Shown: positions 4,276-33,278 of the stretch, one piece after another
Position numbering within the stretch: the first letter of the stretch is position 1
Layout: every line of letters starts with the position of its first letter
Source: an uncultured Flavobacteriaceae bacterium
Lineage (GTDB): Bacteria; Bacteroidota; Bacteroidia; B-17B0; Aurantibacillaceae
Assembly: GCA_964601535.1 (NCBI GenBank)
Contig: CAZRNW010000001.1
Coordinates: 1-34,090, forward strand
DNA: 34,090 nt
Direction: 5' to 3'
Translations under genes and position numbers: made by a program
Notes under the pieces: generated by a model
The model's database searches: none
The model's input: only the letters and a program-made list of their open reading frames with translations
What the model was told of the DNA's origin: nothing

Positions 4276-4284
4276 GGAGAATAA

Positions 4285-4521: not shown

Positions 4522-4522
4522 T

Positions 4523-6714: not shown

Positions 6715-6726
6715 TAGGAGATTTAA

Positions 6727-7200: not shown

Positions 7201-7202
7201 TA

Positions 7203-7607: not shown

Positions 7608-7617
7608 AGGAGATAAC

Positions 7618-7938: not shown

Positions 7939-7950
7939 TAGGGGTTTAGT

Positions 7951-8910: not shown

Positions 8911-8924
8911 TTTAGGAGTTAAAG

Positions 8925-12440: not shown

Positions 12441-12442
12441 TA

Positions 12443-12853: not shown

Positions 12854-12882
12854 ATTTTAACAAGTATATATAGAGGAATATA

Positions 12883-14421
12883 ATGGCATCTATCCTTCAA
12901 GAAGACGAAAATAAAGATCAAGAAACCGGAAGTATGAATCTTGGACAACAAGATCAAGGGGATATTTCATCTCAACCCGGTAGCCCCGCTCCATCTCAAA
13001 CTCTTCGTCCTCCAACTCCAAAAGGGTCTGGACGATTTATGAATTTGCAAAAATATATTTCAGCTAATGCTCCTCAAGCACAACAAATGGCCGGATCAAT
13101 TGGTCAAGGTTTTGCTCAACGCGCAAATCAAGCACAACAAAATGTTTCAAATGCTCAATCTCAATTTCAAGCTCAAGCTCAAAAAGAACAAGATCGTTTG
13201 GGTCAAGCTGGACAATTTGTTCAACAATTACAGACAGCCCCTGGTGCTCAAAATATCGTCCAAAGTCCTGAACAGTTAAGTCAATTTCAAAGATTACAAC
13301 AAGGACAATTAGATTTATCTCAACCTAACTTAAGCGGCGAACAAAGTGAATTACAACAACTTCAACAACAAGCTCAAAATGCTAAAACTGAAGCTGGTCG
13401 TTTTCAAATGCTTCGAGATAAGTTTGGAAATCCTTCATATACATTAGGACAACGAAGATTAGATCAATTACTTTTACAAAATGCTCCTGGAGCTGCTAAT
13501 CAAATTCAACAACAAATTAATCCTGCTTTACAAAGTTTTCAACAAGGTTTATCTGGTGCTGAACAAGATATTTCATCTCGTTATAATGCACTTCAAGGGT
13601 TAGCCGGAGAAGCTCAAGGTCAAATTGAACAAGGTATTATAGGTGGTTTATCTAAAGTTGAAAGTGATGTTCAAGCTGCTCAACAAAAAGCTATTCAAGA
13701 TAGAGCTTTAAGAATGCAACAATTTGGAGTTGGAAATTTAAGTCCTGAAGATATGCAAGAATTAGGAGCTGGATTTTCTGATCCATATCAATCATTGTAT
13801 AATTTGAACTTAAGAGATTACTTAACTTCTCCTGATCAATTACAAGATATTTCAGTTGGACAAGCGGCTAGTCCTGAACAAATTTCTCAATATCAAGCTC
13901 TTCAACAATTAGGTAATAGAACAGGACAACTTGGTGGACAATTAGTTCCTGGACAACAACCAATTGATATGTTACCATTTCAAAATGAAAGATTAATGCA
14001 AGATATTGGGCAAAGACAATCTACGTTTGGACAACAATTCACACCATTAGCTAAATTTTATGAAAATTTAGGTTCTGCAAATTTAGTTAAAGGAAATGCA
14101 AATAATAATCAAATTATTCGTGATATTGCTTTACAAAGTGGAGTTGACCCTTCATTAATGGATTCTTATAGTGGTGGACTACAAAGATCAATTAGCCAAG
14201 CATTATCTGGAGGTTTTCAATCTCCTGAAGAAACAATTGCTCAAATTGTTCAACGTGGATCTCAGAATTATATGCAGGGAATTGCTCAACAAGCTGGTGC
14301 ATTAAATACTATTGGACAATTAGCTCCTGCTGGAACATATCAAGTTCCTTTAACACAACAAGATGTATTAAAACATTTAATTAATCAATATTCTGGTCAA
14401 ACTGTTGGAGCATTAACTTAA
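12883..14421 (+). CDS. Gln-rich putative internal virion / ejection protein
   Basis: AGAGGA Shine-Dalgarno 5 nt upstream. Low-complexity Q/A/G-rich sequence (QAQQMAGSIGQGFAQRANQAQQN...). Positioned after the nozzle-like gene as in T7-type gene order. Confidence 0.45.
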   Translation: MASILQEDENKDQETGSMNLGQQDQGDISSQPGSPAPSQTLRPPTPKGSGRFMNLQKYISANAPQAQQMAGSIGQGFAQRANQAQQNVSNAQSQFQAQAQKEQDRLGQAGQFVQQLQTAPGAQNIVQSPEQLSQFQRLQQGQLDLSQPNLSGEQSELQQLQQQAQNAKTEAGRFQMLRDKFGNPSYTLGQRRLDQLLLQNAPGAANQIQQQINPALQSFQQGLSGAEQDISSRYNALQGLAGEAQGQIEQGIIGGLSKVESDVQAAQQKAIQDRALRMQQFGVGNLSPEDMQELGAGFSDPYQSLYNLNLRDYLTSPDQLQDISVGQAASPEQISQYQALQQLGNRTGQLGGQLVPGQQPIDMLPFQNERLMQDIGQRQSTFGQQFTPLAKFYENLGSANLVKGNANNNQIIRDIALQSGVDPSLMDSYSGGLQRSISQALSGGFQSPEETIAQIVQRGSQNYMQGIAQQAGALNTIGQLAPAGTYQVPLTQQDVLKHLINQYSGQTVGALT

Positions 14422-14801
14422 TGAATATTAAACTGTTTGAAAAAGAAAAAGACTATCAAACTATTTGTAGTTGGTGGGAAAAACATAATTGGCCTAAAAT
14501 CCCTTTAGTTATGCTTCCTCAAACTGGATATATAATTGATAATGTTTGTGCTGGATTTTTATATCAAACTGATAGTAATATTGCTTGGTTAGAATTTATT
14601 ATTTCTAATCCAGATATTACAAAAGAAAATAGATCAAAAGCTTTAGATATTTTAATTGATAAATTAAGTGAAACAGCTAGAGGATTAGGATTTACAACAA
14701 TTTTTACTTCATCTAATCATCCTAGTTTAATTAATAAATATGAAAATAATGGTTTTACTAAAGCTGATTTTAATATGACAAATTTAATGAGGATATTATA
14801 A
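14421..14801 (+). CDS. GNAT-like N-acetyltransferase-fold protein embedded in the internal-virion-protein block
   Basis: ALDILIDKLSETARGLGFTTIFTSS..LINKYENNGFTK fits the GNAT alpha3-beta5-alpha4 pattern. A canonical Q/RxxGxG/A loop is not obvious. Both start and stop are TAATG-coupled to neighbouring genes. Confidence 0.5.
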   Translation: MNIKLFEKEKDYQTICSWWEKHNWPKIPLVMLPQTGYIIDNVCAGFLYQTDSNIAWLEFIISNPDITKENRSKALDILIDKLSETARGLGFTTIFTSSNHPSLINKYENNGFTKADFNMTNLMRIL

Positions 14802-15841
14802 TGGCAGTCGGAACAGCAACACTGGCAGCATTAGCTGCTGCACAAGTAATCGGCGGATTAGTTGGTCAAAATCAACAACGTCAAGCTGCGGCTGGCGCAC
14901 AAGCGGCTAGAGATAGAGCTATGCAAGGAATTGCTGGAGTTGAAATTCCAGATATTGAAAAAATGAAATTGGCATTTGAAATGCCGGAACTTATTGGACA
15001 ATATAATCCATTATTAGAAACAGAGTTGCAACTTGGTCCCTCATCTATGGAAGGGGTTTCGACTGATCCAAGACTAGCTCAAGCTCAAATGTCCGCTTTA
15101 GAACAATTATCTGGTTATTCAAAAGGAGAAATGACTCCTGCTGATGCAATGGCACTAGAACAAATTCGAAGAAATTCAGCATCTCAAGGACAAGCTCGTC
15201 AACAAGCAATTTTATCCGAAATGCAACAACGTGGACAAGGTGGAAGCGGGGCTGAACTTATTGCTCGTTTAAAAGCTGGACAGGCAGAAGCCGATAGAGC
15301 CTCTCAAGAAGGAGCTGCTTTGCAACAAATGTTACAACAACGTGCGCTTCAAGCTATTACAAATCAAGCTACGCTTGGTGGAAGTATGCGATCTCAAGAA
15401 TTCGGAGAAAAATCCGATATTGCTAAAGCTAAAGATATTGTTAATCAATTTAATCTTCAAAATAAACAAAATGTTGGACAACGAAATGTGGGTCAACAAA
15501 ATGAAGCTCAAGCTATGAACCTAAGAGAACGTCAACGTATTGCGGATCAAGCAGTAGCTTTAAGAAATCAACAACAACAATTAAATCAGCGATTACAACA
15601 AGATAAATTTAATAATGAAATGCGTAGAGCACAAGCTTTGGCGGGTCAATATGATCAAAACGCTGCTGCTCTAACACAACGCGGACAAGCAGATTCTCAA
15701 GGTATTACGGATACAACTGGTGGATTAATTAATATGATTGGTATTGGTAGCATGATGGGAGGAAATTCTTCTCCTGCATCGATAAAACCGACTGAACAAT
15801 TTATGCTTCCAGCTCAACATTCTCCTTTTATGAGAAGTTAA
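14801..15841 (+). CDS. Gln-rich putative internal virion protein with hydrophobic termini
   Basis: N-terminal MAVGTATLAALAAAQVIGGLVG and C-terminal GGLINMIGIGSMMGG are hydrophobic segments. The core is a Q/A-rich coiled region. Confidence 0.45.
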   Translation: MAVGTATLAALAAAQVIGGLVGQNQQRQAAAGAQAARDRAMQGIAGVEIPDIEKMKLAFEMPELIGQYNPLLETELQLGPSSMEGVSTDPRLAQAQMSALEQLSGYSKGEMTPADAMALEQIRRNSASQGQARQQAILSEMQQRGQGGSGAELIARLKAGQAEADRASQEGAALQQMLQQRALQAITNQATLGGSMRSQEFGEKSDIAKAKDIVNQFNLQNKQNVGQRNVGQQNEAQAMNLRERQRIADQAVALRNQQQQLNQRLQQDKFNNEMRRAQALAGQYDQNAAALTQRGQADSQGITDTTGGLINMIGIGSMMGGNSSPASIKPTEQFMLPAQHSPFMRS

Positions 15842-15843
15842 AA

Positions 15844-17235
15844 ATGGCAAATAATTTTTTATTAGATCCAGAAAAACAAAAAGAATTAGAACAATATTTC
15901 AATGGATCTCAAACTCCAGAACAAAGTGATCCAAGATATGATCCATCAAGTCTTGGTGAATTTTTACCTTCGATGCCCGATTTAAGTGGAGTTCAAAATT
16001 TCTTATCGGGATTTAATACTCAGTCACTTCCTGCTAATGAAGAAATGAAAACTAATAATGATGGATATTTTGGATCTAAATTACCTGCTTCTCCTGAAGA
16101 GGTACAGCCCCAAATGGCTCCTAGTCCTATTTCGGCTAAACCTATTATTCCTACAGTTCATCAGCCATTAGCCCCTGAAACTGCCGTTCCTCAAGAAAGT
16201 CCAATGCAGAAAATTTTAAATGAATATCAAAAATTATATTCAACAGATCAATTACAATCTGATGCTGATTTAATGAATCAAGCTTTAGATAAAAAACGAG
16301 ATTTATCAATGTTAGATATGTTCTTAAAAGGTGGAGCACAAATGGCAGGAGGTATTGCACAAACAAAACCTGCTGAAATGGTCCAAACTGCGGGATTAGC
16401 TGATATCGATATTGAAAAAGCTAAACAAAAAACTAATTTAACAGATAGACAACGTCAAGCTCTTGAAGCGCAAATGAAAATTTTAGATGTTAAAGAAATG
16501 AATGATCCTACAAGTATGACTTCAAAAGTATATAGACGAACATTACAGGATCTATCTCCAGCAATTGGAAAAATGCCTGAATTACAAAATGCATCAGCTC
16601 AAGCTATTGGTAAAATATTTCCTATGGTTCAGGCTAAAATATCAAATGATGCCAGATTAGCTCAACAACAAATGTTATTACAATTTAAAAAACAAGGTGT
16701 TGATCAACGAAATGCTGAAGAAAAACGTCGAATGACAGCTTTACAAATAAATAGTGCTCGAGGATTATTAAAAGATGATCCAAGATTCAAAAAAGCTATT
16801 GAACAAGGTATGGAATTTGAATCTGTTGATAGTTTATTAAGTGAAGTTGAAAAAGGTAATGAAACTGCATTATCTGCACTTGGAACTAAACTTGCTAGAG
16901 CAATGGGTGAAGTTGGTGTACTAACTGATTCGGATGTTATACGTTATATAGCTGGACAAAGTTGGGGCAGACGCTTAGAAAAATGGTATAAGGGCGGAAT
17001 GCAAGGTAAAATGCCAAAAGAATCTCTCACTGAAATTAAGAAAAATCTAAAATTGCTTCGTGGAAAATTATCAGGAGATGTTAATAAAGTTTACAGTAAT
17101 GCTAGTTCTCGAATGAAAACTGCATTTCCAGATATGGACGATATTACTATTAAAGGTCTTTTAGGTCAACCAATGATCGAATCTGAAAAACCTCAAGAAG
17201 CTCCTTCTTGGAATGATTTTGAGGATATTGAATAA
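15844..17235 (+). CDS. Putative internal virion protein (463 aa)
   Basis: Call rests on position in the ejection-protein-like block. Pro-rich N-terminus and helical remainder, with no diagnostic motif. Confidence 0.4.
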   Translation: MANNFLLDPEKQKELEQYFNGSQTPEQSDPRYDPSSLGEFLPSMPDLSGVQNFLSGFNTQSLPANEEMKTNNDGYFGSKLPASPEEVQPQMAPSPISAKPIIPTVHQPLAPETAVPQESPMQKILNEYQKLYSTDQLQSDADLMNQALDKKRDLSMLDMFLKGGAQMAGGIAQTKPAEMVQTAGLADIDIEKAKQKTNLTDRQRQALEAQMKILDVKEMNDPTSMTSKVYRRTLQDLSPAIGKMPELQNASAQAIGKIFPMVQAKISNDARLAQQQMLLQFKKQGVDQRNAEEKRRMTALQINSARGLLKDDPRFKKAIEQGMEFESVDSLLSEVEKGNETALSALGTKLARAMGEVGVLTDSDVIRYIAGQSWGRRLEKWYKGGMQGKMPKESLTEIKKNLKLLRGKLSGDVNKVYSNASSRMKTAFPDMDDITIKGLLGQPMIESEKPQEAPSWNDFEDIE

Positions 17236-19619
17236 TGGCTGAAATTCAGCGACGTAATAAAAAAACAGGTCAAGTTGGTATCTTCGATAGCAACACTAAA
17301 CAATTCTTAAGATGGGCCGATGAACCTAAAATGGCACAGTCTCAATCTGAAGAACCTAGCTTTGGAGATGCAGCACTTGTTTCTGGTCTTCAAAGTGCAA
17401 CATTTGGTTTATCTGATGAACTAATTGGTGCCTTAGAAACTCCTGGTCGTCTATTAGAGGAAAGAAAAACTGGAGAAAGTTTTTTAGATAAAATCGGTCG
17501 AATATATAAAGAACAGCGTGATTTAGAAAGAGCCAATATAAAACATGCAGAAGAAGAAGCTCCTATGGGTTCCTTAGTTGGAACACTAGCTGGAGGATTT
17601 GCTATGCCTGGTGCATGGCTTGCAAAGGGCGGTTTAGCTGCATCAAAAAGTTTACCTATGATAGCAGAAACAGCACCAAATCTTGTCAAAGCCTTACAAT
17701 CTCCTGTCGGAAAAATGGTTACTGGTGGAGCTGAGGCTGGCGCATTAATGGGTCTAGGTACTAGCGAAAAAGAAGATCTAAGCGGAATGTTATCCGATAC
17801 TTATAGTGGATTAAAAACTGGAGGAGTACTGGGTGGAGGTTTAGGAGTAGCAGGAATGGGAATAGCAAAAGCGGCTCCGATCTTGCAAAAACTTATGCCC
17901 AAATCTGAAGGTGTATTAGCTCGATCATATCAAAAAGGTCGTGAAGGTATTGATATATTAGCCCCAGAATTTGAACAAGGTGTTTCTCAACGGATTAAAC
18001 AAGAAGCTGGTGATTTGTCTCAAATGTTAGGTGGAGAACAAAAAGCCATTCAAGAAACTATTGAGACAGGTGAAAAAGAAGCTTTTAAAACTCTTGAAAA
18101 AACAAGAAGTTCCGTTAATGATAAATTAGATGATATTCAAAAGAATACTAGTGATTATCTAGAGAACCAAACGCAGATCCAAAAAGCTGCAAATAAAAAT
18201 TTACAAGAAAAATTACAAAAAGATCTTGAAAAGAAAGCTCTACAATTACAAAAAGATGTAGATGATGTTAGAGTTAAGCTTGGTAAAGAATACGATACTA
18301 TAGATGATATGGCAGCTAAAGCTGGTGTACAAGTCGATACAACTCCTGTAATTAACAATATTATTGATGAGTTAAATACTACTGGATTAACTGAAAATGC
18401 AGTTAAAGCTATAAGTAAAAAATTTGAACCTGAATATGGAAAAGTAGATTTCCAACAATTTCAAAGTTTAAAACGAAAACTTCAAGAATTGTTTGATCAT
18501 GCAGATCCTATGGTTCGAGGTATCGCTAAAAAGTCTTATGGAAAAATGAGTGAAGCCTTTGAGAAAACATTACGATCAAATGGTCTTAATGATCTAGCTG
18601 ATCAAATTGCTCATACAAATCGTCGTTGGGGTATTTATGCTAACATGGATGATTTTGTTCAAGGAACACGAGTTCAAAAACCTTTTGATCAAAGATTCGC
18701 TGAACCTAAAACTATTAGAACTATCGAAAAATTAGGACTTCCTGAAGCTGAGTCTATTAGCATGAAAAAACAACTAGAAGCTCGTCTTCCAGAAATCATG
18801 CCAGAGACTGCTCCTACTCGTTTACAAGAAATGACTAAATTATCTCAAGATATTGAAGCTGCAAATAAAGCTAAACCTATGGTTCCGACTTTAGATGAAT
18901 CTTTAGGTCAAAATAAAGAATATCAAAAGCTTCAAGAGATGTTAGATGAATTAAAAGGAGTCAAAGTTAAAGCTTTGGATAAGTTAGCTCCTGAAACACA
19001 AAAAGTTCGTGATATTATTAAGGAAGTTCATGGAGAAGAAGCTGCAGAACAATTTATGAATGCTTTATCTCAAATGGAAGTTCCTGCTCAAAAATCATTT
19101 ATTCAACAATTTGGAACAACTCCAGAATCTGTTAAAAAGAAGCTTCTTTCTCTTATTCCGCAAACTGGTGAAAAATTCGGTAGTTTTGCAAAACAACAAG
19201 AACTTGAAGATTTACTTAAAGTATTTGGACAAAAGCATGGTCCCGAAAAGGCGGAAAAATTACAAGGTCGCTTAGAAGAATTAGCTAAGGATATTGAATT
19301 AGGCCGTTCTGTTCAAGGTAGTTCATTTGGTTCAGAAAGTTTTACTCGTCCTGGCGCAATTAAAGCTGCTGCTGGCGGGGGCTTTACAACTGCAGGAACC
19401 AAGATTGCTAACGTAGTTGGAATGTCCGTGCATGATTTCCTAAACTCAACTCCAGGTAAACTACTAGAAATGGCTACAAAAAGCTCTAATAAAGTTATTC
19501 AAGATATTTTAAAACAAGCTGGCACAAGAGATAAGGCGGGACGCCAAGCTTTGCTATTTACTTTAATGCAAAATCCTGCTTATAGAGAATATATACAGGC
19601 CGAACCAGAAGAGAAATAA
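17235..19619 (+). CDS. Large putative internal virion / ejection protein (794 aa)
   Basis: Gly-rich hydrophobic segments (GSLVGTLAGGFAMPGAWLAKGGLAA; GGVLGGGLGVAGMGIAKAAPIL) followed by a long coiled-coil region, as in channel-forming ejection proteins. No transglycosylase motif was seen. Confidence 0.5.
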   Translation: MAEIQRRNKKTGQVGIFDSNTKQFLRWADEPKMAQSQSEEPSFGDAALVSGLQSATFGLSDELIGALETPGRLLEERKTGESFLDKIGRIYKEQRDLERANIKHAEEEAPMGSLVGTLAGGFAMPGAWLAKGGLAASKSLPMIAETAPNLVKALQSPVGKMVTGGAEAGALMGLGTSEKEDLSGMLSDTYSGLKTGGVLGGGLGVAGMGIAKAAPILQKLMPKSEGVLARSYQKGREGIDILAPEFEQGVSQRIKQEAGDLSQMLGGEQKAIQETIETGEKEAFKTLEKTRSSVNDKLDDIQKNTSDYLENQTQIQKAANKNLQEKLQKDLEKKALQLQKDVDDVRVKLGKEYDTIDDMAAKAGVQVDTTPVINNIIDELNTTGLTENAVKAISKKFEPEYGKVDFQQFQSLKRKLQELFDHADPMVRGIAKKSYGKMSEAFEKTLRSNGLNDLADQIAHTNRRWGIYANMDDFVQGTRVQKPFDQRFAEPKTIRTIEKLGLPEAESISMKKQLEARLPEIMPETAPTRLQEMTKLSQDIEAANKAKPMVPTLDESLGQNKEYQKLQEMLDELKGVKVKALDKLAPETQKVRDIIKEVHGEEAAEQFMNALSQMEVPAQKSFIQQFGTTPESVKKKLLSLIPQTGEKFGSFAKQQELEDLLKVFGQKHGPEKAEKLQGRLEELAKDIELGRSVQGSSFGSESFTRPGAIKAAAGGGFTTAGTKIANVVGMSVHDFLNSTPGKLLEMATKSSNKVIQDILKQAGTRDKAGRQALLFTLMQNPAYREYIQAEPEEK

Positions 19620-19620
19620 T

Positions 19621-19983
19621 ATGGATGATAATCAAAGAATACTTGATAAACTTGATAAGGTTGAAGATAAATTAGATAGAAAATTCGATCGTCTCGATCG
19701 TCGTGTTGATGGAATGGAAAAAGAACTAGCTATTTATAATGAACAATTAAAACATCACATCGAAGGTGTTCGTCAATTAAAAACGGAAAATGAAATGCTT
19801 CGTGAGTATATTGATATGGAAACACAAAAAATTCAAGTAGAATTAAGTCCGATTAAGCTTCATGTTGAAAAGGTCAGTTCTTTAGCTAATAGTATTAGAG
19901 GATTTGGAAATTTATTTCTAAAAGTAGCTGGAGCAATAACAATTATTACTGGTGCCATTTATGGTATCCAACAACTATTATAA
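19621..19983 (+). CDS. Tail-anchored coiled-coil membrane protein (XhlA-like architecture)
   Basis: N-terminal coiled coil (LDRKFDRLDRRVDGMEKELAIYNEQLKHHIEG) plus a C-terminal TM segment (FLKVAGAITIITGAIYGIQQLL). The XhlA comparison is from memory of that family's layout. Confidence 0.5.
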   Translation: MDDNQRILDKLDKVEDKLDRKFDRLDRRVDGMEKELAIYNEQLKHHIEGVRQLKTENEMLREYIDMETQKIQVELSPIKLHVEKVSSLANSIRGFGNLFLKVAGAITIITGAIYGIQQLL

Positions 19984-19990
19984 GTGATAT

Positions 19991-20545
19991 ATGCCATTTA
20001 AATTTAAAGAAGACGAAGAAGATGATTTAGAACCAGGAATGCCAGGGGCCCATGAAGAACCTAGTATTCTTGATAAGATTAAAAGTTTAATACCTGAGGA
20101 TATACAAGAACAAATTCCTGATATCAATGATTATAAAAAATCAGCATTAGAAGGTTTATCTGGAATGAAAAATTCCTTTATGGGCGGTTTAGAACGTTTC
20201 GAAAATCAATATAATGCTATGACTCCTGAACAAAAAGCTGAACAGGCATTAGGTATGGCAATGGGATCTGTTGGCGGTATTGGAAAATTAGGTAATGTTT
20301 TAAAAACTGAAGTCCCCATCGCTCAATCTCTTAGAGCTAAAGCTCTTGAAAAATTAGCTCAAGGATCGGAACAAGCAGGTGGATTTATGGGTAAACATTT
20401 ACCAGAATTGCAAGGTGTCCAAAAAGGGACCTTACAAGCAACACATCCTGCTATGCAAAAAATTGAACAAATGATGGCATCTCCTGAAAATATGGATATG
20501 CTTAGAAAACTTCAATCTTTAAAAAATCAATATGGAAAATTTTAA
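19991..20545 (+). CDS. Hypothetical protein, last gene of the plus-strand module
   Basis: ATG start and coding-like composition. Its TAA stop overlaps the stop of the convergent gene. Confidence 0.5.
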   Translation: MPFKFKEDEEDDLEPGMPGAHEEPSILDKIKSLIPEDIQEQIPDINDYKKSALEGLSGMKNSFMGGLERFENQYNAMTPEQKAEQALGMAMGSVGGIGKLGNVLKTEVPIAQSLRAKALEKLAQGSEQAGGFMGKHLPELQGVQKGTLQATHPAMQKIEQMMASPENMDMLRKLQSLKNQYGKF

Positions 20546-23305: not shown

Positions 23306-23334
23306 AGTATATCATATATCATCATCGTTGTCAA
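23306..23334 (-). promoter_or_regulatory. Consensus sigma70-type promoter P3 (TTGACA-N17-TATACT, extended -10 TGA)
   Basis: The minus strand reads GCTTGACA ACGATGATGATATATGA TATACT. The -35 is at 23334-23329 and the -10 at 23311-23306. The TGA extended -10 element (23314-23312) is also the stop codon of the HNH gene. A leader of about 35 nt with AAGGAG precedes the ATG at 23273. Confidence 0.7.
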
Positions 23335-23689
23335 GCTTTTTCTTTGCTTGACGTGATTTTGTACGTATTTGGTTTTCTTTGGCTGTTTTATAATCATGAC
23401 AAGCGTCACATAAGATTTGGAGGATATCTTCATTACAAAATAAACGAGTAATGAAACCATCCCAATTATCCCATCCAGAAGGGGGGACGACAGGGATAAC
23501 GTGATCGACGCTTATATCTTTAGGTCCCCAAAGATGAGTTCGACCTTGACGTTTACATTCAGCACATTCATATAAACCACGAGAAACTCGTGCTTTTCCT
23601 AGTGCTAATTTTCGTTTAGACCATTGGTAACTTAACTTTCTGAGCTTCGGAACTAACCAGCTCCGAAGCGAAATTTCTTTTTTAGCCAT
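23312..23689 (-). CDS. HNH endonuclease
   Basis: CAECKRQG...DISVDHVIPVVPP...LCDACHDYKT is an HNH finger with two Cys pairs. ATG start. Confidence 0.8.
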   Translation of the reverse strand: MAKKEISLRSWLVPKLRKLSYQWSKRKLALGKARVSRGLYECAECKRQGRTHLWGPKDISVDHVIPVVPPSGWDNWDGFITRLFCNEDILQILCDACHDYKTAKENQIRTKSRQAKKKLDNDDDI

Positions 23690-23690
23690 C

Positions 23691-24011
23691 CTAGCTATTC
23701 GTTCGAACGCGCTCCTCGTACTTACATAAACCGCATCGTTTAATTATTAAAAATTTTAAATCACTTTCTTCAAGTGGACATTTTCCACACTCAGGACATA
23801 TCGGTTTGTTTGAGAATTTGATCTCAATATCTCCGTTCTCAAAAGCGTCATTAATAATTTCTTCATAATTATGTTCTTGTCTCTCAAGTTGTTTAAGTCG
23901 TTTTTTGAGATTTCGATTTTCACTTTTAAGATTTTGAACTTGTCTTTTAAGATGCTGAACTTCATTTAATTCTTTATTGTTCCGATGCGTTCTTTTCATT
24001 TGTACTTCCAA
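23691..24011 (-). CDS. Coiled-coil protein with a C-terminal zinc-ribbon-like motif
   Basis: CPECGKCP...CGLCKY. The track start is TTG at 24011. The in-frame ATG at 23999 (MKRTHRNN, GGAAG upstream) is the more likely start. Confidence 0.45.
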   Translation of the reverse strand: MEVQMKRTHRNNKELNEVQHLKRQVQNLKSENRNLKKRLKQLERQEHNYEEIINDAFENGDIEIKFSNKPICPECGKCPLEESDLKFLIIKRCGLCKYEERVRTNS

Positions 24012-25068
24012 AAGCGCCAGTATCTCTTTCCGTTAATTCTAAATCATCAACAACTTTAAATTCAAAATGCTGAATCTGTTGTGGAATTAATTGCGCAACA
24101 CGCATTGGTAATTTAATTTCGGGCATATTTTTATCAATTTTCGTTAAAGCAATAATTATATTTCCTAAATATGTTCTATCAATAATACCAACAGAATTTG
24201 TCATAATATAACCGCTCTTACTTAAAGAACTTCTAGGAACTACTAAGCCATAATAACCAAAAGCCGGAGAAACTTTTATTCCGGTATCATAAAATGTGGT
24301 ATCCCCATTAGTTTTAATTTTATCAATAATCGTTAAATCATATCCAGAATCTGATGCTCGTACTTTAGATGGAATTACAGCATCTGGGCGACTTTTAGCC
24401 CATCGAAAAAAATCAGTTTTCCAAAATCTAGAATAACCAATTGATGGAGTCCACGTTGCTATATCTTGATATAAATTAGCCTTTCGGTTTAAATAAATAT
24501 GCGAATTGTTATACAATTTATATAACATATCTAAAGCGTTATTACCTGACCAAACAATTCTTTCTTTATTATCGGTCCAAAATGGAATTTGTAAAAAATC
24601 TGTAATTCCGTTTCTCATTGATTCAGAATTTGTTGTTATTCCACATCGAGGAAGAGTATTATTTTTAGAAATAATAGTTACATGACCATCTCCATCAAAA
24701 AATCCTCTAATAAAATGTCGTTTTAAATTTTCTGATAATAAATATGGAAAATTAACAGTAAAACTTTTTTTACCTGGAACAATATTCAGCCAATTACATA
24801 TATTTTTAACTATTTTGACCGAATTAATTGTAAAACCTACTGTATTTTTCTTAGATTCAAAAATTGGGATATTTAAATTTAATAACAATAATAGATCTTT
24901 AAGAATATGTTTATCTTTTTTATGAATTTCAAGTTGAACTCGATTTTTTTGAATAGTTCCGTCACTTGCTATCCATCCAAGAAAATAAGCTAATTCTTCA
25001 GTTTCAATTGTCGAAAATAAATCTCGATTATAATTGTACTTTATCTTTGAGTTCGATAATTTGCCCAA
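23974..25068 (-). CDS. dut: In-frame fusion: double-motif LAGLIDADG homing-endonuclease domain (N) + complete dUTPase (C)
   Basis: LAGLIDADG motifs LAYFLGWIASDGTI and FIRGFFDGDGHV lie at about nt 25011-24424. All five dUTPase motifs follow: SDSGYDL, VPRSSLS, GIIDRTYLGNI, RVAQLIP, RDTGAFGSTNE. TTG start with an AAGGA Shine-Dalgarno 7 nt upstream. There is no in-frame ATG/GTG/TTG at the domain boundary. Confidence 0.8.
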   Translation of the reverse strand: MGKLSNSKIKYNYNRDLFSTIETEELAYFLGWIASDGTIQKNRVQLEIHKKDKHILKDLLLLLNLNIPIFESKKNTVGFTINSVKIVKNICNWLNIVPGKKSFTVNFPYLLSENLKRHFIRGFFDGDGHVTIISKNNTLPRCGITTNSESMRNGITDFLQIPFWTDNKERIVWSGNNALDMLYKLYNNSHIYLNRKANLYQDIATWTPSIGYSRFWKTDFFRWAKSRPDAVIPSKVRASDSGYDLTIIDKIKTNGDTTFYDTGIKVSPAFGYYGLVVPRSSLSKSGYIMTNSVGIIDRTYLGNIIIALTKIDKNMPEIKLPMRVAQLIPQQIQHFEFKVVDDLELTERDTGAFGSTNEKNASEQ

Positions 25069-25303
25069 GAATTGTTCCTTTAACTTGTTGATTAATTTTT
25101 CCTGGTAATCCTTTAAAAATTAGGACAATTTGATTATTTTCAAGTCGTTTTGAACCTAGGAAAAAAAAAGTATTATCTATTAATAAGTTAATATCAGGTT
25201 TAATAATAAAATTATCGTGTTCAATTGTATTAGAACAAATATAGTTAATTATACGAATTCCATACTCAAAAGTAATATCTTCTTTTTCTAAAATTATATC
25301 CAT
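25028..25303 (-). CDS. Hypothetical 91-aa protein, first gene after promoter P2 (probably leaderless)
   Basis: The ATG at 25303 lies 6 nt after the -10 hexamer with no Shine-Dalgarno. No recognisable motif. Confidence 0.45.
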   Translation of the reverse strand: MDIILEKEDITFEYGIRIINYICSNTIEHDNFIIKPDINLLIDNTFFFLGSKRLENNQIVLIFKGLPGKINQQVKGTILGQIIELKDKVQL

Positions 25304-25338: not shown

Positions 25339-25579
25339 GCGTTTTCTTTCTTCCGCGCTTTTTAGGTGGATCTCCCATGATTATCTCGGTTTTACCGCCA
25401 TGTGAATGAATCTCGATAAGATCATTAAGGCTTTTATAAATGGCGATAGAACTGGTAAATGTAAGCCATTCCATAACGCAATGACCTGATGGAAGGATTA
25501 CACCACGGGCGACTATTCCGGTTCCCGAAACGCCTGATTCATCTTCATTTCGTTTTAGATAAAAATGTTTTATTTCCAT
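25328..25579 (-). CDS. Hypothetical 83-aa protein with a basic C-terminal tail
   Basis: ATG start. A GVSGTGIVARGV...IHSHGG core is followed by PPKKRGRKKT, which is AT-hook-like but lacks the canonical GRP. Confidence 0.45.
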   Translation of the reverse strand: MEIKHFYLKRNEDESGVSGTGIVARGVILPSGHCVMEWLTFTSSIAIYKSLNDLIEIHSHGGKTEIIMGDPPKKRGRKKTLDN

Positions 25580-25947
25580 GTTTTTAAAATTACCTCATAA
25601 ACAGGTTTTTCTAATTTTAACATTGTTTCTTTCATATTTTTTGAACCAGGAGATGAACCATCCCATATTAATAATAGAGCATCTGCATAGTCCGCCATTT
25701 CCTTATTTCTAATTGGTCCGGCTTTTTTACCATGTTTATCCCAATCGGCATGAAATTGAATAGTTTTAATTGAATCTTCTCCACAAATATCTCGAATATT
25801 TAGTGCCCATTTTTCACCTACTAAATCTACTCCTCTTGCACATCCAGATACAACTTCGGTTACCATTAAATTATGATAACAAACAAGAGAATTAATAAAT
25901 TGTGTAGATATATCAATACTACGACTTCCTGCAATAATTAATTTCAT
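25570..25947 (-). CDS. SLOG-superfamily (DUF2493-like) protein
   Basis: KLIIAGSRS...VVSGCARGVDLVGEKWA...ADWDKHGKKAGPIRNKEM...LLLIWDGSSPGSKN matches the DUF2493/SLOG Rossmann pattern. I prefer the ATG at 25947 (ATGA overlap with the thyX stop, GGAG upstream) to the track's TTG at 25956. Confidence 0.65.
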   Translation of the reverse strand: MKLIIAGSRSIDISTQFINSLVCYHNLMVTEVVSGCARGVDLVGEKWALNIRDICGEDSIKTIQFHADWDKHGKKAGPIRNKEMADYADALLLIWDGSSPGSKNMKETMLKLEKPVYEVILKTWK

Positions 25948-26633
25948 ATACTCCAATTATTTCTTTCTAAAGCTTCTAAAGCAAAAGGTATCTTGTTTGA
26001 AGCTTTAATTGCTTCAAACATGAGATTGGCAATTTGTTGTATCTCGGGTTGAGCATGTTTATCAGAACGAAGTTTATAAAAATTAGCCCAAGATCGAAGA
26101 TTCATAATACTAATGCGTTCAGTCATATTATGTTGAGGTAAAATTCCTCTAAAAAATTCTCTTACTCTTTTATATTCATCATTATTAATAATTAAATTTT
26201 CAGATGCTATTTTTGCTTGATTACAAAATATTGAATAGAAATTATTTGCTTCTTCACATATATCATAATATCTTTGAAAAAAATCTTCTCCGTTTTGTTC
26301 AAATTTTTTAATAATATTATCAACATCTTCAGGTAAATCTAAATATTCTATCGGCATTCGACGATAACGAGCTGACATACCACTTGCACTTTGTAACCGA
26401 TGAGTCATTAATTGTCTATCAATAGCTATAGGAAGTTTAAGCCAAAATCGAAAAATAATAGATTCAAAGGGGACTGAATGTTTTTGATCTGCAAGTAAAT
26501 TAATTACTCTTTTAACATCATCATCTGATCTTTTTAATTTAGCTGTTCTTCCTAAACTTGATGTCCATGCAGCTTCAGCAATAGATCTATCGTTTCCCAT
26601 TATATCTTGTAATTCAACTAAAATTTGACTCAT
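25944..26633 (-). CDS. thyX: FAD-dependent thymidylate synthase ThyX
   Basis: The ThyX signature THRLQSASGMSARY fits RHRxxSxxxxSxRY with Thr replacing the first Arg. An upstream HSVPFESIIFRF block is also present. Confidence 0.8.
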   Translation of the reverse strand: MSQILVELQDIMGNDRSIAEAAWTSSLGRTAKLKRSDDDVKRVINLLADQKHSVPFESIIFRFWLKLPIAIDRQLMTHRLQSASGMSARYRRMPIEYLDLPEDVDNIIKKFEQNGEDFFQRYYDICEEANNFYSIFCNQAKIASENLIINNDEYKRVREFFRGILPQHNMTERISIMNLRSWANFYKLRSDKHAQPEIQQIANLMFEAIKASNKIPFALEALERNNWSI

Positions 26634-28378: not shown

Positions 28379-29160
28379 TTTCTAAGTGACTCCCTTTTTT
28401 CTTTTGATAATAAATTAGTTCTTCCTTGTTGATGAGCACCACATTCAATACATCTATAGCGTTGAAATTTTCCAGTTGTTGTAAATCGAACTCCATTTTT
28501 TGCAAATTTTTGACTTCCACAAGAACAAACCATATCTTTATCTTCATGATAAACACTAAAATTAATAGTACTATCCCACGGTATTAATTGATTGTATAAT
28601 TCTTCTAATGCCAAAACATCATGAATATTATATGATTTCATCTGGTTCCAAGCTTGTTTATTACCTAATAAACATTCCTTCCATAAAAGAAATCCAGGGA
28701 ATTTTTCATGTTTTAATTTTTTATATTTTTTATTTAATTTATCAGAAAGATATTCAAGTTTATTAGAAGTAAATGCGAAATGTTTAGTTGCTAAAAGTTT
28801 AGTATCAATTTTCTTATAATCACTTGGAGGTTGCATTCCATTTAGAATAAATCTTGCATTTAATTTTTTTAAATCAAAACGATTTGAATTTTGACCAACA
28901 ACAATATCTGCTTCATCTAATAATTTCCATATAATTTCTAAGATTTTTTTATCATTTTCAATATTTTTTGTATTTCTTTGATCAATATACATTACCTTAT
29001 TTTTTGGTTCTCCATGCCATTTTGCAGCTACTGCTAATATATGCCAATCTTTTTCAATCATGTTTAAAGGTATCGTTTGGTCCCATAATGACCAAACTGA
29101 TGCTAAAATTGGCGAAGTTTCAATATCTAATAATAAAATTCTTGGTTTTATTTTTTTCAT
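28375..29160 (-). CDS. Stand-alone PolB-exonuclease-like (DnaQ fold) 3'-5' exonuclease with a C-terminal zinc ribbon
   Basis: ILLLDIETSP (Exo I), VVGQNSNRFDLKKL (Exo II), YNIHDVLALEELY (Exo III), then CSCGS...CIECGAH. Confidence 0.7.
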   Translation of the reverse strand: MKKIKPRILLLDIETSPILASVWSLWDQTIPLNMIEKDWHILAVAAKWHGEPKNKVMYIDQRNTKNIENDKKILEIIWKLLDEADIVVGQNSNRFDLKKLNARFILNGMQPPSDYKKIDTKLLATKHFAFTSNKLEYLSDKLNKKYKKLKHEKFPGFLLWKECLLGNKQAWNQMKSYNIHDVLALEELYNQLIPWDSTINFSVYHEDKDMVCSCGSQKFAKNGVRFTTTGKFQRYRCIECGAHQQGRTNLLSKEKRESLRK

Positions 29161-29705
29161 ATTAAGTGTTTCTCATAAATATTTTTAATCATTTTAAAAA
29201 ATATTTCTTCAGTTAAAGTGTTTTTAGCATAATTACAATTTTTACAACAAGGACGAACATTAGATAATATATATCCTAAATTATTATTAATCCTATCAAT
29301 TCCGGTATAAGTAAATTGACCATGATGTCTTTTGTAATTCGTACTAATATATGGCAATGAACCACAATAAAAACATTTTTCTCTTGAAAAAGAATCAAAT
29401 TGTTCTAATGTTAATTCAAATAATAGATTTTTCTTTTTGGCCTTCTGTTTATAACTATCAAAAACTTTATTTCTAGATGATAATCCATATTCTTTTGATT
29501 TATATCTAGTTGGATGAATACATCCACAAGATTTTGTAAAATTTTTCATATTTAAACTTCTAGCTTTAATAATACGTTCTTTTCCACAATCACATCTACA
29601 TAACCAATTTATTAGTCTATAACCTAATTTATTATAAGCAGGCTCAACTTCTTTAATTACTGTTAGTTTTCCAAATTTTTTGCCAACTAGATTTTTTCGA
29701 GTCAC
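29157..29705 (-). CDS. HNH_3-type homing endonuclease
   Basis: FGKLTVI...WLCRCDCGKE...SCGC at the N-terminus and GIDRINNNLGYILSNVRPCCKNCNYAKN at the C-terminus. GTG start overlapping the upstream stop (GTGA). Confidence 0.75.
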   Translation of the reverse strand: MTRKNLVGKKFGKLTVIKEVEPAYNKLGYRLINWLCRCDCGKERIIKARSLNMKNFTKSCGCIHPTRYKSKEYGLSSRNKVFDSYKQKAKKKNLLFELTLEQFDSFSREKCFYCGSLPYISTNYKRHHGQFTYTGIDRINNNLGYILSNVRPCCKNCNYAKNTLTEEIFFKMIKNIYEKHLI

Positions 29706-29943: not shown

Positions 29944-29972
29944 ATTATACCACATTTTCATACCGTTGTCAA
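29944..29972 (-). promoter_or_regulatory. Consensus sigma70-type promoter P1 (TTGACA-N17-TATAAT, extended -10 TGG)
   Basis: The minus strand reads CGTTGACA ACGGTATGAAAATGTGG TATAAT ATCCT ATG. The -35 is at 29972-29967 and the -10 at 29949-29944. The -35 lies in the last codons (ACG TTG ACA ACG GTA TGA) of the polymerase C-terminal ORF. Confidence 0.7.
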
Positions 29973-30713
29973 CGTTAACAACGCTTGTTCGTTTTTCTTT
30001 AGATGATATTTAGGAAATTTACTCATGTCAAGTAAATTTGATAAGATCTCGGTTGTTTTATATACACGTTCAACATAATGCAGTTTGTTCTCATCCTTCG
30101 ACCAAACTGCGGGGACTTTGAGGACCTCATTCGGGACCATCTTGGGGGCTCCATCTTTATAGAAGACTGGCTCACCTTTTGCATAGGCTTGTATCATCCC
30201 GTCTAAAGCGTTATATACCCAAACTTTATCACCTTCTTGGAGCGTTTGACCTTTTAATGCATCCATTACTTTTGTCTCATTTGTTCGTTCTCCAGTTAAG
30301 ACTTTTTTAGTCACAGTTTTTTTAACCGTCCAGCGATTGATATCCTGGATGTTCATAGCTTCTTTTGTGTATTTCTGGAAAATGGGGACTAATCTTTCAT
30401 AATCAATTCCATAACTTATTAATGAATCTATATATTCTTTTAACATATACTTTAATGCTGGTTCTTTTTTGGTATCTTTAAATGCTGAACCTTTAATTGT
30501 TATTTTTCCATCCTTAACTAATATATAGTTTTTAGCTTTTAATACTATACATTGATCATAATACCCGTCATCATCAAAAATCATAAAATCAGGCATTATT
30601 GAATTTAATTCAATTAATAGTAATTTTCGTTCTTCATTAGAAAACGGAGACATGTTATATTTACAAAAAGAAATACTGTCTGTATCTGTCGGGCCAATAA
30701 TAAAATTATACAT
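29958..30713 (-). CDS. Family B DNA polymerase, C-terminal fragment (motif C onward)
   Basis: FIIGPTDTDSISF is motif C (DTDS) and LKAKNYILV is KxY-like. The ATG overlaps the GIY-YIG stop (ATGTATAA). Confidence 0.8.
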   Translation of the reverse strand: MYNFIIGPTDTDSISFCKYNMSPFSNEERKLLLIELNSIMPDFMIFDDDGYYDQCIVLKAKNYILVKDGKITIKGSAFKDTKKEPALKYMLKEYIDSLISYGIDYERLVPIFQKYTKEAMNIQDINRWTVKKTVTKKVLTGERTNETKVMDALKGQTLQEGDKVWVYNALDGMIQAYAKGEPVFYKDGAPKMVPNEVLKVPAVWSKDENKLHYVERVYKTTEILSNLLDMSKFPKYHLKKNEQALLTLTTV

Positions 30714-31371
30714 AAAAGAACTTAACTCCAGGTCTAGACCATTCTGATCTATTTTTTAAATTATCACAAACCGCTTGAACTGATATATCCCAAAATTTAG
30801 AAGCTGCTATTAATGATTTATGAATTATTCCCATAGAATCTATCACTTTTTTTCGTCGTTTAGTTTGATCAACTCGACCAATAGAATTAACTCTTATAGC
30901 AGTTCTGGACATTTTTCTTTTAGTTTTTTCTGACCATTTTCTAAGTTTTCTTTTTTCAGACATTCGTTGTCTAGTTTCTAATGAGGCCTTCTTCCCGTAA
31001 TTTGGATGATTTTTACCTTTTGGCCATTTTATTTTCTTAAACTTAAATTTAGTTTTTCGACTATGCTTTCGTCCCGCCATCGGAGCTAAGGCATCTTTAG
31101 CTACATTATAAAGAGGAGTTAATGTATTTAAACAAAACTGTTCTAAAATTAATAAATCGTCTTTTTCGCAGTTAATAAAAATTTCAAATATTAGATTATT
31201 TAATCCATATTTATTATAAACTCTTTGTAAAATCGGACTATGATGTTTTTTCTTAAATAAATCCCTTTTATGTACTGATATTCTTTTGTTAATATCAATA
31301 GAACTTCCTATATAAAAATGATTATTAATTTTATTCCTAATAAAATATATTCCAGATATTTTACTCCTCAT
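30706..31371 (-). CDS. I-TevI-like GIY-YIG homing endonuclease inserted in the polymerase gene
   Basis: SGIYFIRNKINNHFYIGSSIDINKRISVHKRDL is the GIY-YIG motif. GKNHPNYGKKASLETRQRMSEKRK is NUMOD3-like. The C-terminal HTH IAASKFWDISVQAVCDNLKN parallels the I-TevI layout. Confidence 0.9.
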   Translation of the reverse strand: MRSKISGIYFIRNKINNHFYIGSSIDINKRISVHKRDLFKKKHHSPILQRVYNKYGLNNLIFEIFINCEKDDLLILEQFCLNTLTPLYNVAKDALAPMAGRKHSRKTKFKFKKIKWPKGKNHPNYGKKASLETRQRMSEKRKLRKWSEKTKRKMSRTAIRVNSIGRVDQTKRRKKVIDSMGIIHKSLIAASKFWDISVQAVCDNLKNRSEWSRPGVKFFYV

Positions 31372-33073
31372 CTGTTGCTCCTGTTTTTTCTTTAAAAATT
31401 TGAAACCAATAATCGGATTTGTATCCAGATGCCCATTCTAATGCTGTATCAATTATTTTTCTAGTTTCATGAGTAATTTTTTCAGCTAATTTAGGACTAT
31501 TGAAATTTAACCCTTGCGTATTACATAGACCATATGCGCTATTAATAAAAATCTTAGCGGTTTGTTCTCTATTCTTATAATAATCATCTTTAGTTTGTTT
31601 ATATAAATCCTTTAATTTGAAACGTTCTTCTGTAAAATATTTTACCATTTTATAAAAATTTGAATTTGGGTCCTTTACTTTATCATGTAATTTAAATCTT
31701 AAAACTTGAGAAGGATATGCCGATTTTAAATCAACTTTTAACATATTTTTATATATACCAGGAACTGCAAATGATATTCCGCCTTGAACATAATCTAATT
31801 GGCTCGCTCTAGGGATACTCTGATCATGTTGTAAATAAGAGCGGATCATAAAACTATTAATCTGTGCCCCTGTTGCACTGTTAATAATTTGCTGAAGTGT
31901 CTTTGGAATAGATTGAGTATAATAGAAAAAGGGGGGGATCATGCGTTCATAGAGTGCCATGGCGTCGTCCGAATCGTCCATCGCATACGCCTTTATTTTT
32001 ACCCGTTCTGATGCTTTATTCCAGTTTTCAGCAATCTTAGAAGCATCATAATGTTGTCTATCTTTTTTTTCTAAACCAAGTTGGGCTATAATAGATTTTA
32101 ATCCATAAGAAGTAAAATTTCGCTCAGCAGCATCGTATTTAATAGATAGAAACATTGTATCGACAATTTCTCTGCCAGCTATAAAACAATTTTGATATGA
32201 ATACGTCTGACTTCCATCTTTTCGGAACTCAGACGTGTATTCGTTAAATTTTATACCCGATTCGTCTCGACCAAGACTAACGTTTTCAAATTTGGTTCTT
32301 GAATAACAATGATTTATATATGGTAAATCGTATGAAAAAATATTGTGACCGCACATAATGCTAGGGTTCATCTTGCGAACCCAAGATGACCAATCTTCTA
32401 TCATGTTAGCGTCATTATTTTCGTAGTCATCTACAGAAAACATTTTCTTTATTGTCTTTCCGTTTTTCTTAAATGTGTTAGAAATAATTAAGACGCGACT
32501 AGTCTGGTCCCGATTTAGTCCTGTTGTTTCTATATCGAACGCGAGAACGGACACGTCCTCTACTTTCATTCCTTTAAAGTACGTTATACCTTCACGAACT
32601 AAGGCTCCTTCTTCTCCACTATAAATTGAAAAAAAGTCTAATTTATAACCCTTCTGTCGAGCAGCATCAAATTCGGAACGAGTATCTACTTCATGAATAT
32701 ATTTATAATATCCATTTCCACGTAAACGACTAAAGCCTTCATAATTCTTCGGCGCCAATAGCCAATATTTGTTCTCCCGAATTTCTGTTTCTATCTTTCC
32801 ATTTATTTCTTTGTGTAAATAAAGAATATTATCATCAACATTAATTGATACTATATTTTCCGTTCTGTCTTTTCCAAAAATAAGATCATTATGACTCTCT
32901 TCTTCGGAACGAATAAATGAGTTCGGAAGAAGAATTTCATCACCTGTATTAAATTTATATAACTTTCCTTCTTTTTGCTCAACTTGTTCTAAAATACTAA
33001 CTTCAGGATCATTAGTAAAAGCTAAAAAATCTTGATACATATCCTTTGAGTCAATAATTGTAATATTATTCAT
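31361..33073 (-). CDS. Family B DNA polymerase, N-terminal fragment (exonuclease domain, motifs A and B)
   Basis: VLAFDIETTGL (Exo I), HNIFSYDLPYI (Exo II), YAMDDSDDAMALY (Exo III), VDLKSAYPSQV (motif A, DxxSLYPS type), KIFINSAYG (motif B, KxxxNSxYG). I prefer the ATG at 33073 to the track's TTG at 33097. Confidence 0.85.
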   Translation of the reverse strand: MNNITIIDSKDMYQDFLAFTNDPEVSILEQVEQKEGKLYKFNTGDEILLPNSFIRSEEESHNDLIFGKDRTENIVSINVDDNILYLHKEINGKIETEIRENKYWLLAPKNYEGFSRLRGNGYYKYIHEVDTRSEFDAARQKGYKLDFFSIYSGEEGALVREGITYFKGMKVEDVSVLAFDIETTGLNRDQTSRVLIISNTFKKNGKTIKKMFSVDDYENNDANMIEDWSSWVRKMNPSIMCGHNIFSYDLPYINHCYSRTKFENVSLGRDESGIKFNEYTSEFRKDGSQTYSYQNCFIAGREIVDTMFLSIKYDAAERNFTSYGLKSIIAQLGLEKKDRQHYDASKIAENWNKASERVKIKAYAMDDSDDAMALYERMIPPFFYYTQSIPKTLQQIINSATGAQINSFMIRSYLQHDQSIPRASQLDYVQGGISFAVPGIYKNMLKVDLKSAYPSQVLRFKLHDKVKDPNSNFYKMVKYFTEERFKLKDLYKQTKDDYYKNREQTAKIFINSAYGLCNTQGLNFNSPKLAEKITHETRKIIDTALEWASGYKSDYWFQIFKEKTGATDEE

Positions 33074-33278
33074 TTTCTTGTTCCCAAATATTTTCAAAAT
33101 ATTTAGTTCCTTCAGGAAATCCCATTTCTTCAGCAGAAGAAAAATTTGTTGATGGAGGTAGCATTCCCATATGTTCTAAACCTTCTAAAATTTCATTAGC
33201 CACCGTTTCATCTAATTGACAATCTTCATAAGTATTGATTAGTTTTGTAAGATAAGTTACCATTTCACTACGTTTCAT
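33066..33278 (-). CDS. Hypothetical 70-aa protein
   Basis: ATG start, ATGA coupling with the upstream gene, no motif. Confidence 0.4.
   Translation of the reverse strand: MKRSEMVTYLTKLINTYEDCQLDETVANEILEGLEHMGMLPPSTNFSSAEEMGFPEGTKYFENIWEQENE

Follow-up and report, generated by a model that had tools for sequence, protein, structure and literature searches.

A minus-strand open reading frame (ORF) at positions 23974..25068 of contig CAZRNW010000001.1 (34,090 nucleotides (nt), the whole of which was analysed and is called the window here) encodes a LAGLIDADG endonuclease domain followed, in the same frame, by a complete dUTPase. It is as good as certain that this LAGLIDADG-dUTPase fusion is a real fused gene of an old family. 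The interpretation favoured here, which we hold to be probable with its mechanism included, is that a homing endonuclease associated with dut was fused in frame to a working dUTPase. Taken separately, an active dUTPase is very likely, and an active endonuclease directed at dut is an evenly balanced proposition. The first-pass annotation of this DNA had proposed a single ORF of 364 amino acids (aa) with both LAGLIDADG motifs and then a dUTPase with its five motifs; all of these elements were located as described, with the stop codon at 23974-23976, and the strand, which that annotation left unstated, is the minus strand.

The N-terminal domain spans residues ~5-205 (24454..25056; like every feature of the fusion, on the minus strand) and was recognized as a monomeric two-motif LAGLIDADG endonuclease by a family hidden Markov model (HMM) at 1e-80, by an AlphaFold2 (AF2) model and by Foldseek. 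The first LAGLIDADG motif, YFLGWIASDG (residues 28-37, 24958..24987), is preceded by 27 residues and contains the catalytic Asp36; the second, FIRGFFDGDG (residues 119-128, 24685..24714), contains the catalytic Asp127. Each of the two motif helices ends in an acidic catalytic residue, as in two-motif LAGLIDADG enzymes, and both Asp residues are at least 90% conserved in close homologues. A PGKKS loop (24763..24777) presumably represents the active-site Lys loop. Because both catalytic Asp residues and the KKS loop are retained, the window copy is probably still an active nuclease. In Pfam, LAGLIDADG_3 matches the N-terminal 200 residues with 48 bits against a cut-off of 22.5 (E 1.5e-12), and LAGLIDADG_1 and Hom_end match the same region, the latter weakly (22.2 bits). 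An inter-domain linker of 15 residues, WTPSIGYSRFWKTDF (residues 206-220, 24409..24453), which is modelled with reduced confidence and in which W206 and P208 are kept across homologues, leads to a trimeric-type dUTPase domain (residues 221-356, 24001..24408). This assignment is based on the five conserved motifs, namely ASDSGYDL (24334-24357), PRSS (24226-24237), GIIDRTYLG (24163-24189), RVAQ (24091-24102) and RDTGAFGST (24001-24027), and on the match of residues 231-356 to the Pfam dUTPase family (PF00692), with 68.9 bits against a curated cut-off of 22 (E 4.7e-19); the NCBIfam TIGR00576 score, 90.4, lies under its cut-off of 102.55. PHROG profiles for endonuclease (4e-37) and dUTPase (5e-31) both match the fusion protein, and domain scores of this size are not explained by chance.

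The start codon of the fusion is a TTG (25066..25068), the first start 3' of an upstream in-frame stop that lies 17 codons away, with zero alternative start codons between them. An AAGGA Shine-Dalgarno sequence (25076..25080) precedes the TTG with a spacer of 7 nt, and the N-terminus of short-form homologues, 'MGR.NPN.KY', aligns with the TTG position, in agreement with the start proposed in the first-pass annotation. The same annotation had claimed that no in-frame start exists at the domain boundary, and a reading of the window frame indeed found zero ATG, GTG or TTG codons at residues 186-288; therefore, no complete separate dUTPase could be started at this boundary.

The AF2 model of the fusion protein, a monomer built with 70 homologues, has a mean predicted local distance difference test (pLDDT) score of 88, the endonuclease region being mostly above 90. 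The N-terminal domain (residues 24-204) is built of helices and strands, the C-terminal domain is rich in beta structure, and a low-confidence linker (residues 201-220, pLDDT ~62-66) connects the two; the tail with motif 5 is disordered, as is usual for dUTPases. Foldseek aligned the N-terminal domain with the monomeric archaeal intron endonuclease I-Tsp061I (2dch; E 1e-9, 201 columns) and also with the bI3 maturase, and a profile search retrieved 2dch at 8e-10. The model, Foldseek and the profile search all reveal the pseudo-dimeric alpha-beta-beta-alpha-beta-beta-alpha LAGLIDADG fold. For the C-terminal domain, Foldseek gave trimeric dUTPases, among them the phage T5 and M. tuberculosis enzymes, and solved dUTPases were retrieved by the profile search at 1e-23 to 1e-16. 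Tolerance of the N-terminal extension by the dUTPase trimer is indirectly supported, as hundreds of fused homologues keep all dUTPase motifs, and trimeric-type dUTPases would thus appear to accept an N-terminal domain of 200 residues.

A search of 5.8 billion proteins with the fusion protein gave 972 matches. All 120 listed matches align with 91-100% of the query (44-55% identity) and have the same architecture; both Pfam domains are on record for 117 of these listed homologues and dUTPase only for three. The homologues fall into a short class (~350-370 aa) and a long class (~410-450 aa), the long forms bearing an additional N-terminal Cys-rich module of ~85 residues. When the dUTPase domain alone was used as the query against 1.84 billion cluster representatives, 443 representatives were obtained at E<=1e-30. 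Of the best 150, 149 are longer proteins in which the match is C-terminal, and the remaining one is a free-standing protein of 148 aa. Across the 120 homologues, the endonuclease parts are on average 48% identical and the dUTPase parts 63%, and the two parts co-vary (Pearson r = 0.68, 7140 pairs), indicating that endonuclease and dUTPase are inherited as one unit.

Members of the family occur on phage-sized contigs, in giant-virus bins and on an iridovirus-like contig with an adjoining major capsid protein gene, and on a 503-kb contig labelled 'uncultured archaeon' that encodes ClpB, ClpP, DnaJ and dCMP deaminase and resembles a jumbo phage. A 'dUTP diphosphatase' of Clandestinovirus (A0A8F8KKJ2 in BFVD, 386 aa) aligns to the model over its full length. 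In bacteria, 42 loci were found among 185,579 species genomes, the carriers including Rubrivirga, Salinibacter, Gemmatimonadota, Planctomycetota, Microscillaceae, Gloeobacterales, many Polyangiaceae and Desulfurobacteriaceae; the Rubrivirga copy sits in an ordinary chromosomal context. The fused genes of different phages and bacteria lie in unrelated surroundings, and a comparison of these contexts revealed no conserved neighbourhood. None of 50,697 GenBank phage records holds a match covering 80% of the fusion protein, and the fusion is experimentally unstudied because no isolated GenBank phage carries it.

The association with dut was revealed by free-standing relatives of the endonuclease domain. 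A scan of IMG/VR with the endonuclease HMM at E<=1e-50 found four distinct relatives of this kind, three of which have a canonical dut upstream (same strand, at a distance of 44 nt to 1.8 kb): dut at 246-680 and endonuclease at 724-1569 in locus L015, 5923-6492 and 6566-7492 in the L016/L017 group (coordinates of L017), and 1868-2452 and 4214-5056 in L020. The fourth, L068, is without dut. In the same scan, none of ~58 more distant LAGLIDADG loci has a dUTPase within ~12 kb, and the difference in dut adjacency between close and distant loci gives ~1e-4 in Fisher's exact test (hand calculation). The L015 and L017 proteins share the Cys-rich module, a 'GRNNPN' motif, both DG motifs and a GKK loop (GKKS in L015, GKKD in L017), and they end exactly where the fusions run on into the linker. 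When the L015 endonuclease was used as a protein query, free-standing (257-297 aa) and fused (410-456 aa) proteins came up intermixed at 39-43% identity. All five free-standing protein-database matches that were looked up stand immediately after dut, and each shares 26-59 nt with the 3' end of that gene; they were counted as one lineage because all come from one syntenic phage group, and the number of independent phage groups with a free-standing endonuclease after dut is three. The position of the free-standing relatives beside dut genes points to dut as the probable homing locus. Locus L006 bears the fusion and a second, canonical dut 2.6 kb off.

The dut genes that adjoin free-standing relatives (L015, L017, L135-L139) have an unusual motif 3, which reads GVIDPGYRAE, GTIDSDYVD or GIIDEHY; in the fused clade, motif 3 is IDR[TS]Y. 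The unusual sequences may reflect immunity of the target site. In the phage group with dut followed by the endonuclease, a second LAGLIDADG ORF (L138, 5530-6384) and a GIY-YIG fragment (L137, 4663-4797) are encoded a few kb downstream of the pair.

The endonuclease domain of the family exists in two states, which were compared in the 76 full-length representatives nearest to the window dUTPase. Both catalytic acids are kept in 33 of these, both are lost in 34 and one is lost in 9. At a dUTPase identity of ~54%, the endonuclease parts of Asp-keeping pairs are 38% identical and those of decayed pairs 20%. The Cys-rich module is present in 24/33 Asp-keeping versus 11/43 decayed forms, and both the NPN motif and the G-KKS loop are present in 23/33 versus 1/43. 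The identity contrast and the co-retention of these motifs therefore imply that the endonuclease apparatus is selected in one part of the family and is decaying in the other. The dUTPase is constrained throughout the family, whatever the state of the endonuclease. Decayed chromosomal copies are found in Microscillaceae, Polyangiaceae, Gloeobacterales, Planctomycetota and Aquificota, and the Asp residues are kept in Rubrivirga, Salinibacter, Gemmatimonadota, one Deltaproteobacterium and most phage copies; the inspected giant-virus members, L012 and L013, have decayed motifs. Loss of catalytic acids with retention of the fold, the hallmark of a domesticated LAGLIDADG domain, is thus seen in 43 of the 76 representatives and in most chromosomal copies, and is not seen in the window copy, which retains both Asp residues and PGKKS.

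According to the favoured interpretation, a single bifunctional polypeptide would be produced from the TTG, and splicing, translational restart and processing would be unnecessary. The C-terminal 145 residues would act as an ordinary trimeric-type dUTPase, and the N-terminal 205 residues would be a monomeric two-motif LAGLIDADG homing endonuclease of a dut-dwelling lineage. Since the fused gene is the only dUTPase gene on the contig and lies near thyX, the dUTPase would most likely serve dUMP supply and the exclusion of uracil from phage DNA. We infer that dut is the target and that a trimer is formed; the dUTPase trimer would then carry three peripheral monomeric endonuclease domains. The endonuclease would cut dut loci without endonuclease, and repair would copy the endonuclease and its own dUTPase into the recipient, whose dUTPase function would never be lost. 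In the fused branch, the endonuclease would have become the N-terminal part of the dUTPase, and both domains are inherited as a unit. As the endonuclease part supplies the start codon, its simple deletion would be impossible and its clean loss difficult. After fixation, homing would stop and the endonuclease would decay in place, which would explain the dead domains in bacterial lineages. A bolder proposal, which we put forward only tentatively, is that the family represents a third route, besides introns and inteins, by which a homing endonuclease enters an important gene without harm, namely as a cut-and-replace cassette targeting the resident dut. The fused dUTPase would be immune to cleavage, the IDR[TS]Y motif 3 of the fused clade being the immunity change, and the cassette would move between phages, giant viruses and bacteria; once fixed, the endonuclease would turn into a dead N-terminal domain, trapped by carrying the start codon.

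Several points weigh against the interpretation as a dut-associated homing endonuclease. No endonuclease-minus allele of any carrier was found in the IMG/VR searches: the ThyX-based search gave no relatives, and the search with the L017 dut recovered only the same phage. Megablast of 10 kb of the window against GenBank phages also gave no match. The free-standing relatives stand 3' of dut and the fused domain stands 5'; any path from one arrangement to the other is conjecture. A rough neighbour-joining tree of the dUTPase domain mixes both states of the endonuclease and needs at least 19 changes, but its resolution, with 136 residues, is weak. No terminal repeat is present on the contig, and the statement that the fused gene is the only dUTPase gene holds for the 34 kb seen. 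Cleavage, the target site and homing itself are inferred. The window copy is without the Cys-rich module, and its NPN motif has degenerated to SNS (GKLSNSKIKY); the endonuclease may be on the way to inactivity. Furthermore, entire bacterial lineages still keep the decayed domain, which could therefore have a non-nuclease role.

The last points lead to the main rival explanation, in which the LAGLIDADG part has been domesticated: it would no longer cut, and would aid the dUTPase by DNA binding, regulation, localization or as a scaffold. The retention of the domain in about half of the family despite loss of one or both catalytic acids, including copies in Polyangiaceae, Microscillaceae, Gloeobacterales and Aquificota chromosomes, speaks for such a role, and the near absence of unfused members among the nearest dUTPase relatives, the lack of the Cys-rich module and NPN motif in the window copy, and the presence of the bI3 maturase among the Foldseek matches point in the same direction. 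However, both catalytic Asp residues and the KKS loop persist in the window copy, and Asp-keeping forms are about twice as constrained as decayed ones, a constraint that a scaffold would not need. The mutual identity of only 20% among decayed domains also argues for decay rather than a new conserved function. Considering both sides, domestication of the window copy appears rather unlikely.

Another explanation is that the fusion is a precursor, which is cut after synthesis or from which the dUTPase is started internally, yielding two separate proteins. Certain LAGLIDADG proteins encoded in mitochondrial introns are synthesized as exon fusions that undergo processing afterwards; homologues conserve the linker motif W-x-P-S despite low model confidence, and a head-maturation or ClpP-like protease is encoded on the contig (22121-22975). 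Internal initiation is opposed by the start-free stretch at residues 186-288 and by the lack of a conserved Met near the boundary in homologues. As for processing, a protease site and partner are not known, and bacterial chromosomal members would need identical processing. A precursor is thus improbable.

Still less probable, to the point of being barely tenable, is a remnant of an intein or of an intron-encoded endonuclease inside dut. The domain is of the DOD/LAGLIDADG type found in inteins and group I introns, Pfam Hom_end matches weakly (22.2 bits), and 'intein splicing domain' is the label that an iridovirus homologue received in its original description (PMC6669658). This idea is contradicted by the protein itself, in which the dUTPase is whole and no N-terminal extein is present. 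The first-pass annotation had stated that the endonuclease is not an intein, and a profile search for splicing blocks had been fixed beforehand as the check on which that statement could fall; no Hint or intein-splicing family was found at E<=1 in the fusion protein or five homologues. Blocks A, B, F and G and the junction residues of inteins are likewise absent, and there is no extein on both sides, as the dUTPase is complete, uninterrupted and C-terminal. In homologues, the N-terminal flank of the endonuclease is a start codon or the Cys-rich module, as in the long forms, and never dUTPase sequence. The domain is most closely related to free-standing genes, each having a start and a stop of its own. 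An intein proper is therefore ruled out by the absence of Hint and splicing blocks and of an N-extein. A group I intron product is ruled out as well, since no Rfam family, group I introns included, reaches its gathering score across the window and the frame is continuous in >100 homologues. An artefact joining two neighbouring genes, for which one could cite the metagenomic assembly with its AT-rich homopolymer runs, is practically excluded by >100 independent homologues from many samples, in which the same frame runs unbroken across a conserved junction (W206, P208).

The first-pass annotation had also suggested that a homing gene was captured as an N-terminal extension of its host gene. The fusion to dUTPase stands, and capture in this phage does not, as the family is old and the codon composition matches the contig. 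Recent acquisition was rejected as well: the GC content at third codon positions is 0.14 and 0.16 for the two halves versus 0.11-0.24 for contig genes, with no GC anomaly.

Within the 34 kb of the window, dUTPase is encoded by the fused gene alone, which also contains the only domain of its LAGLIDADG lineage; no second copy of either was found. The fused gene is located three genes downstream of thyX, which encodes a ThyX thymidylate synthase (25944-26633), in a minus-strand block for replication and nucleotide metabolism. A small SLOG/YspA-like protein (25570-25956; PHROG 'GTP-binding domain') adjoins ThyX just upstream of the fusion, and an ORF of 91 aa without Pfam or PHROG match (25028..25303) overlaps the start of the fusion with its last 41 nt; all three are on the minus strand. 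The idea that the 91-aa ORF is left over from a displaced dut was rejected: it scores -0.4 bits against the dUTPase HMM, and 70 of 200 shuffled sequences reach this value. A frameshifted N-terminal Cys-rich module was rejected too, because the module HMM found none in any window frame (best E 0.6). The ClpP-like or head-maturation protease mentioned above lies among the replication genes on the minus strand, separate from the structural block on the plus strand (700-20545). An HNH endonuclease (23312-23689, minus) is encoded two genes downstream of the fusion, and an endonuclease VII/HNH-like protein is encoded at 29157-29705 (minus). A family B DNA polymerase gene is apparently split by a homing endonuclease (29958-33097, minus): an ORF that has the PolB exonuclease domain but a polymerase domain limited to its first part (31361-33097) is followed by a GIY-YIG + NUMOD3 endonuclease (30706-31371) and by an ORF that starts with '...GPTDTDS...', resembling PolB motif C, and has no Pfam or PDB match (29958-30713), all on the minus strand. 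With these additional mobile-type nuclease genes, four homing-type nuclease genes are therefore present in the 10-kb replication block.

In L011, an ORF of 1633 aa resembling ribonucleotide reductase (663-5564) with several LAGLIDADG intein-like insertions lies directly upstream of a decayed-type LAGLIDADG-dUTPase gene (5503-6564) and overlaps it. In the jumbo-phage-like contigs L002 and L003, a second LAGLIDADG ORF (13461-14389) is located between ClpP and DnaJ; it is intact in L003 (308 aa) and, in the other sample, L002, broken into 212 + 101 aa, which is a presence/decay polymorphism of a different homing endonuclease.

The known refuges of homing endonucleases are introns, inteins and intergenic sites, and a stable N-terminal fusion to a metabolic enzyme would add a strategy to these. 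Hundreds of sequence clusters from phages, giant viruses and bacteria have conserved the fusion, and the family provides a natural series of the homing cycle, with active-looking, half-decayed and dead domains on one enzyme. It also explains many metagenomic 'dUTPases' of 350-450 aa that are mislabelled as intein-containing. New monomeric meganucleases are predicted from the family, the target possibly being a conserved dut sequence. A literature search found no study of a LAGLIDADG-dUTPase fusion, the sole trace being an entry in an iridovirus table. The architecture is thus already present in databases and in that one entry, and the family, its two states and the link to dut appear to be undescribed.

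The entry concerns a lizard-cricket iridovirus, for which the authors reported a 'novel dUTPase' that combines an 'intein splicing domain' at the N-terminus with a trimeric dUTPase; its gene adjoins the resident dut and its best homologue is in Pithovirus (Papp & Marschang 2019, PMC6669658). Like the window protein, the iridovirus and Clandestinovirus proteins have an N-terminal domain of DOD/LAGLIDADG type and a C-terminal trimeric dUTPase; unlike it, they are giant-virus copies mentioned only in annotation tables as 'intein splicing domain' and never analysed. Moreover, the giant-virus members inspected here (L012, L013) are decayed, whereas the window copy retains both catalytic Asp residues. 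In-frame fusions of rps3 with LAGLIDADG ORFs have been described from the mL2450 rnl intron of Ophiostomatales mitochondria (Gibb & Hausner 2005, as cited in PMC7902536). They share with the window gene a homing-endonuclease ORF fused in frame to a host gene with no intein, and differ in being organellar, inside a group I intron and restricted to few taxa. In contrast, the window fusion has no intron, a phage host and an enzyme N-terminus as its site, and belongs to a family that extends across viruses and bacteria. LAGLIDADG inteins (e.g., PI-SceI) resemble the window fusion in that the endonuclease is translated in frame and the host gene stays functional, but the window protein has no Hint domain, no N-terminal extein and no excision, and the endonuclease stays attached. 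Domesticated LAGLIDADG folds are known from WhiA and intron maturases. Decayed family members are comparable to these, as the fold is kept after loss of the catalytic acids, whereas the window protein keeps both catalytic Asp residues and has no helix-turn-helix or RNA partner. In the nucleocapsid-dUTPase of Mason-Pfizer monkey virus, which is produced by ribosomal frameshifting, a zinc-knuckle RNA-binding partner precedes a dUTPase that still forms a trimer. Both this betaretroviral fusion and the window protein have a nucleic-acid-binding module N-terminal of a trimeric dUTPase, although the retroviral partner is a zinc-knuckle RNA-binding protein and not a nuclease; by analogy, an N-terminal nucleic-acid-binding partner would be compatible with the dUTPase trimer. 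The Seg and Mob homing endonucleases of phage T4 are separate ORFs of the GIY-YIG or HNH type that lie beside their targets ('intronless homing'). The closest relatives of the window domain are likewise free-standing genes directly beside a conserved gene (dut), whereas the window enzyme is a LAGLIDADG protein that has lost its own stop codon. By this analogy, the window gene would work most like a free-standing phage homing endonuclease beside its target gene.

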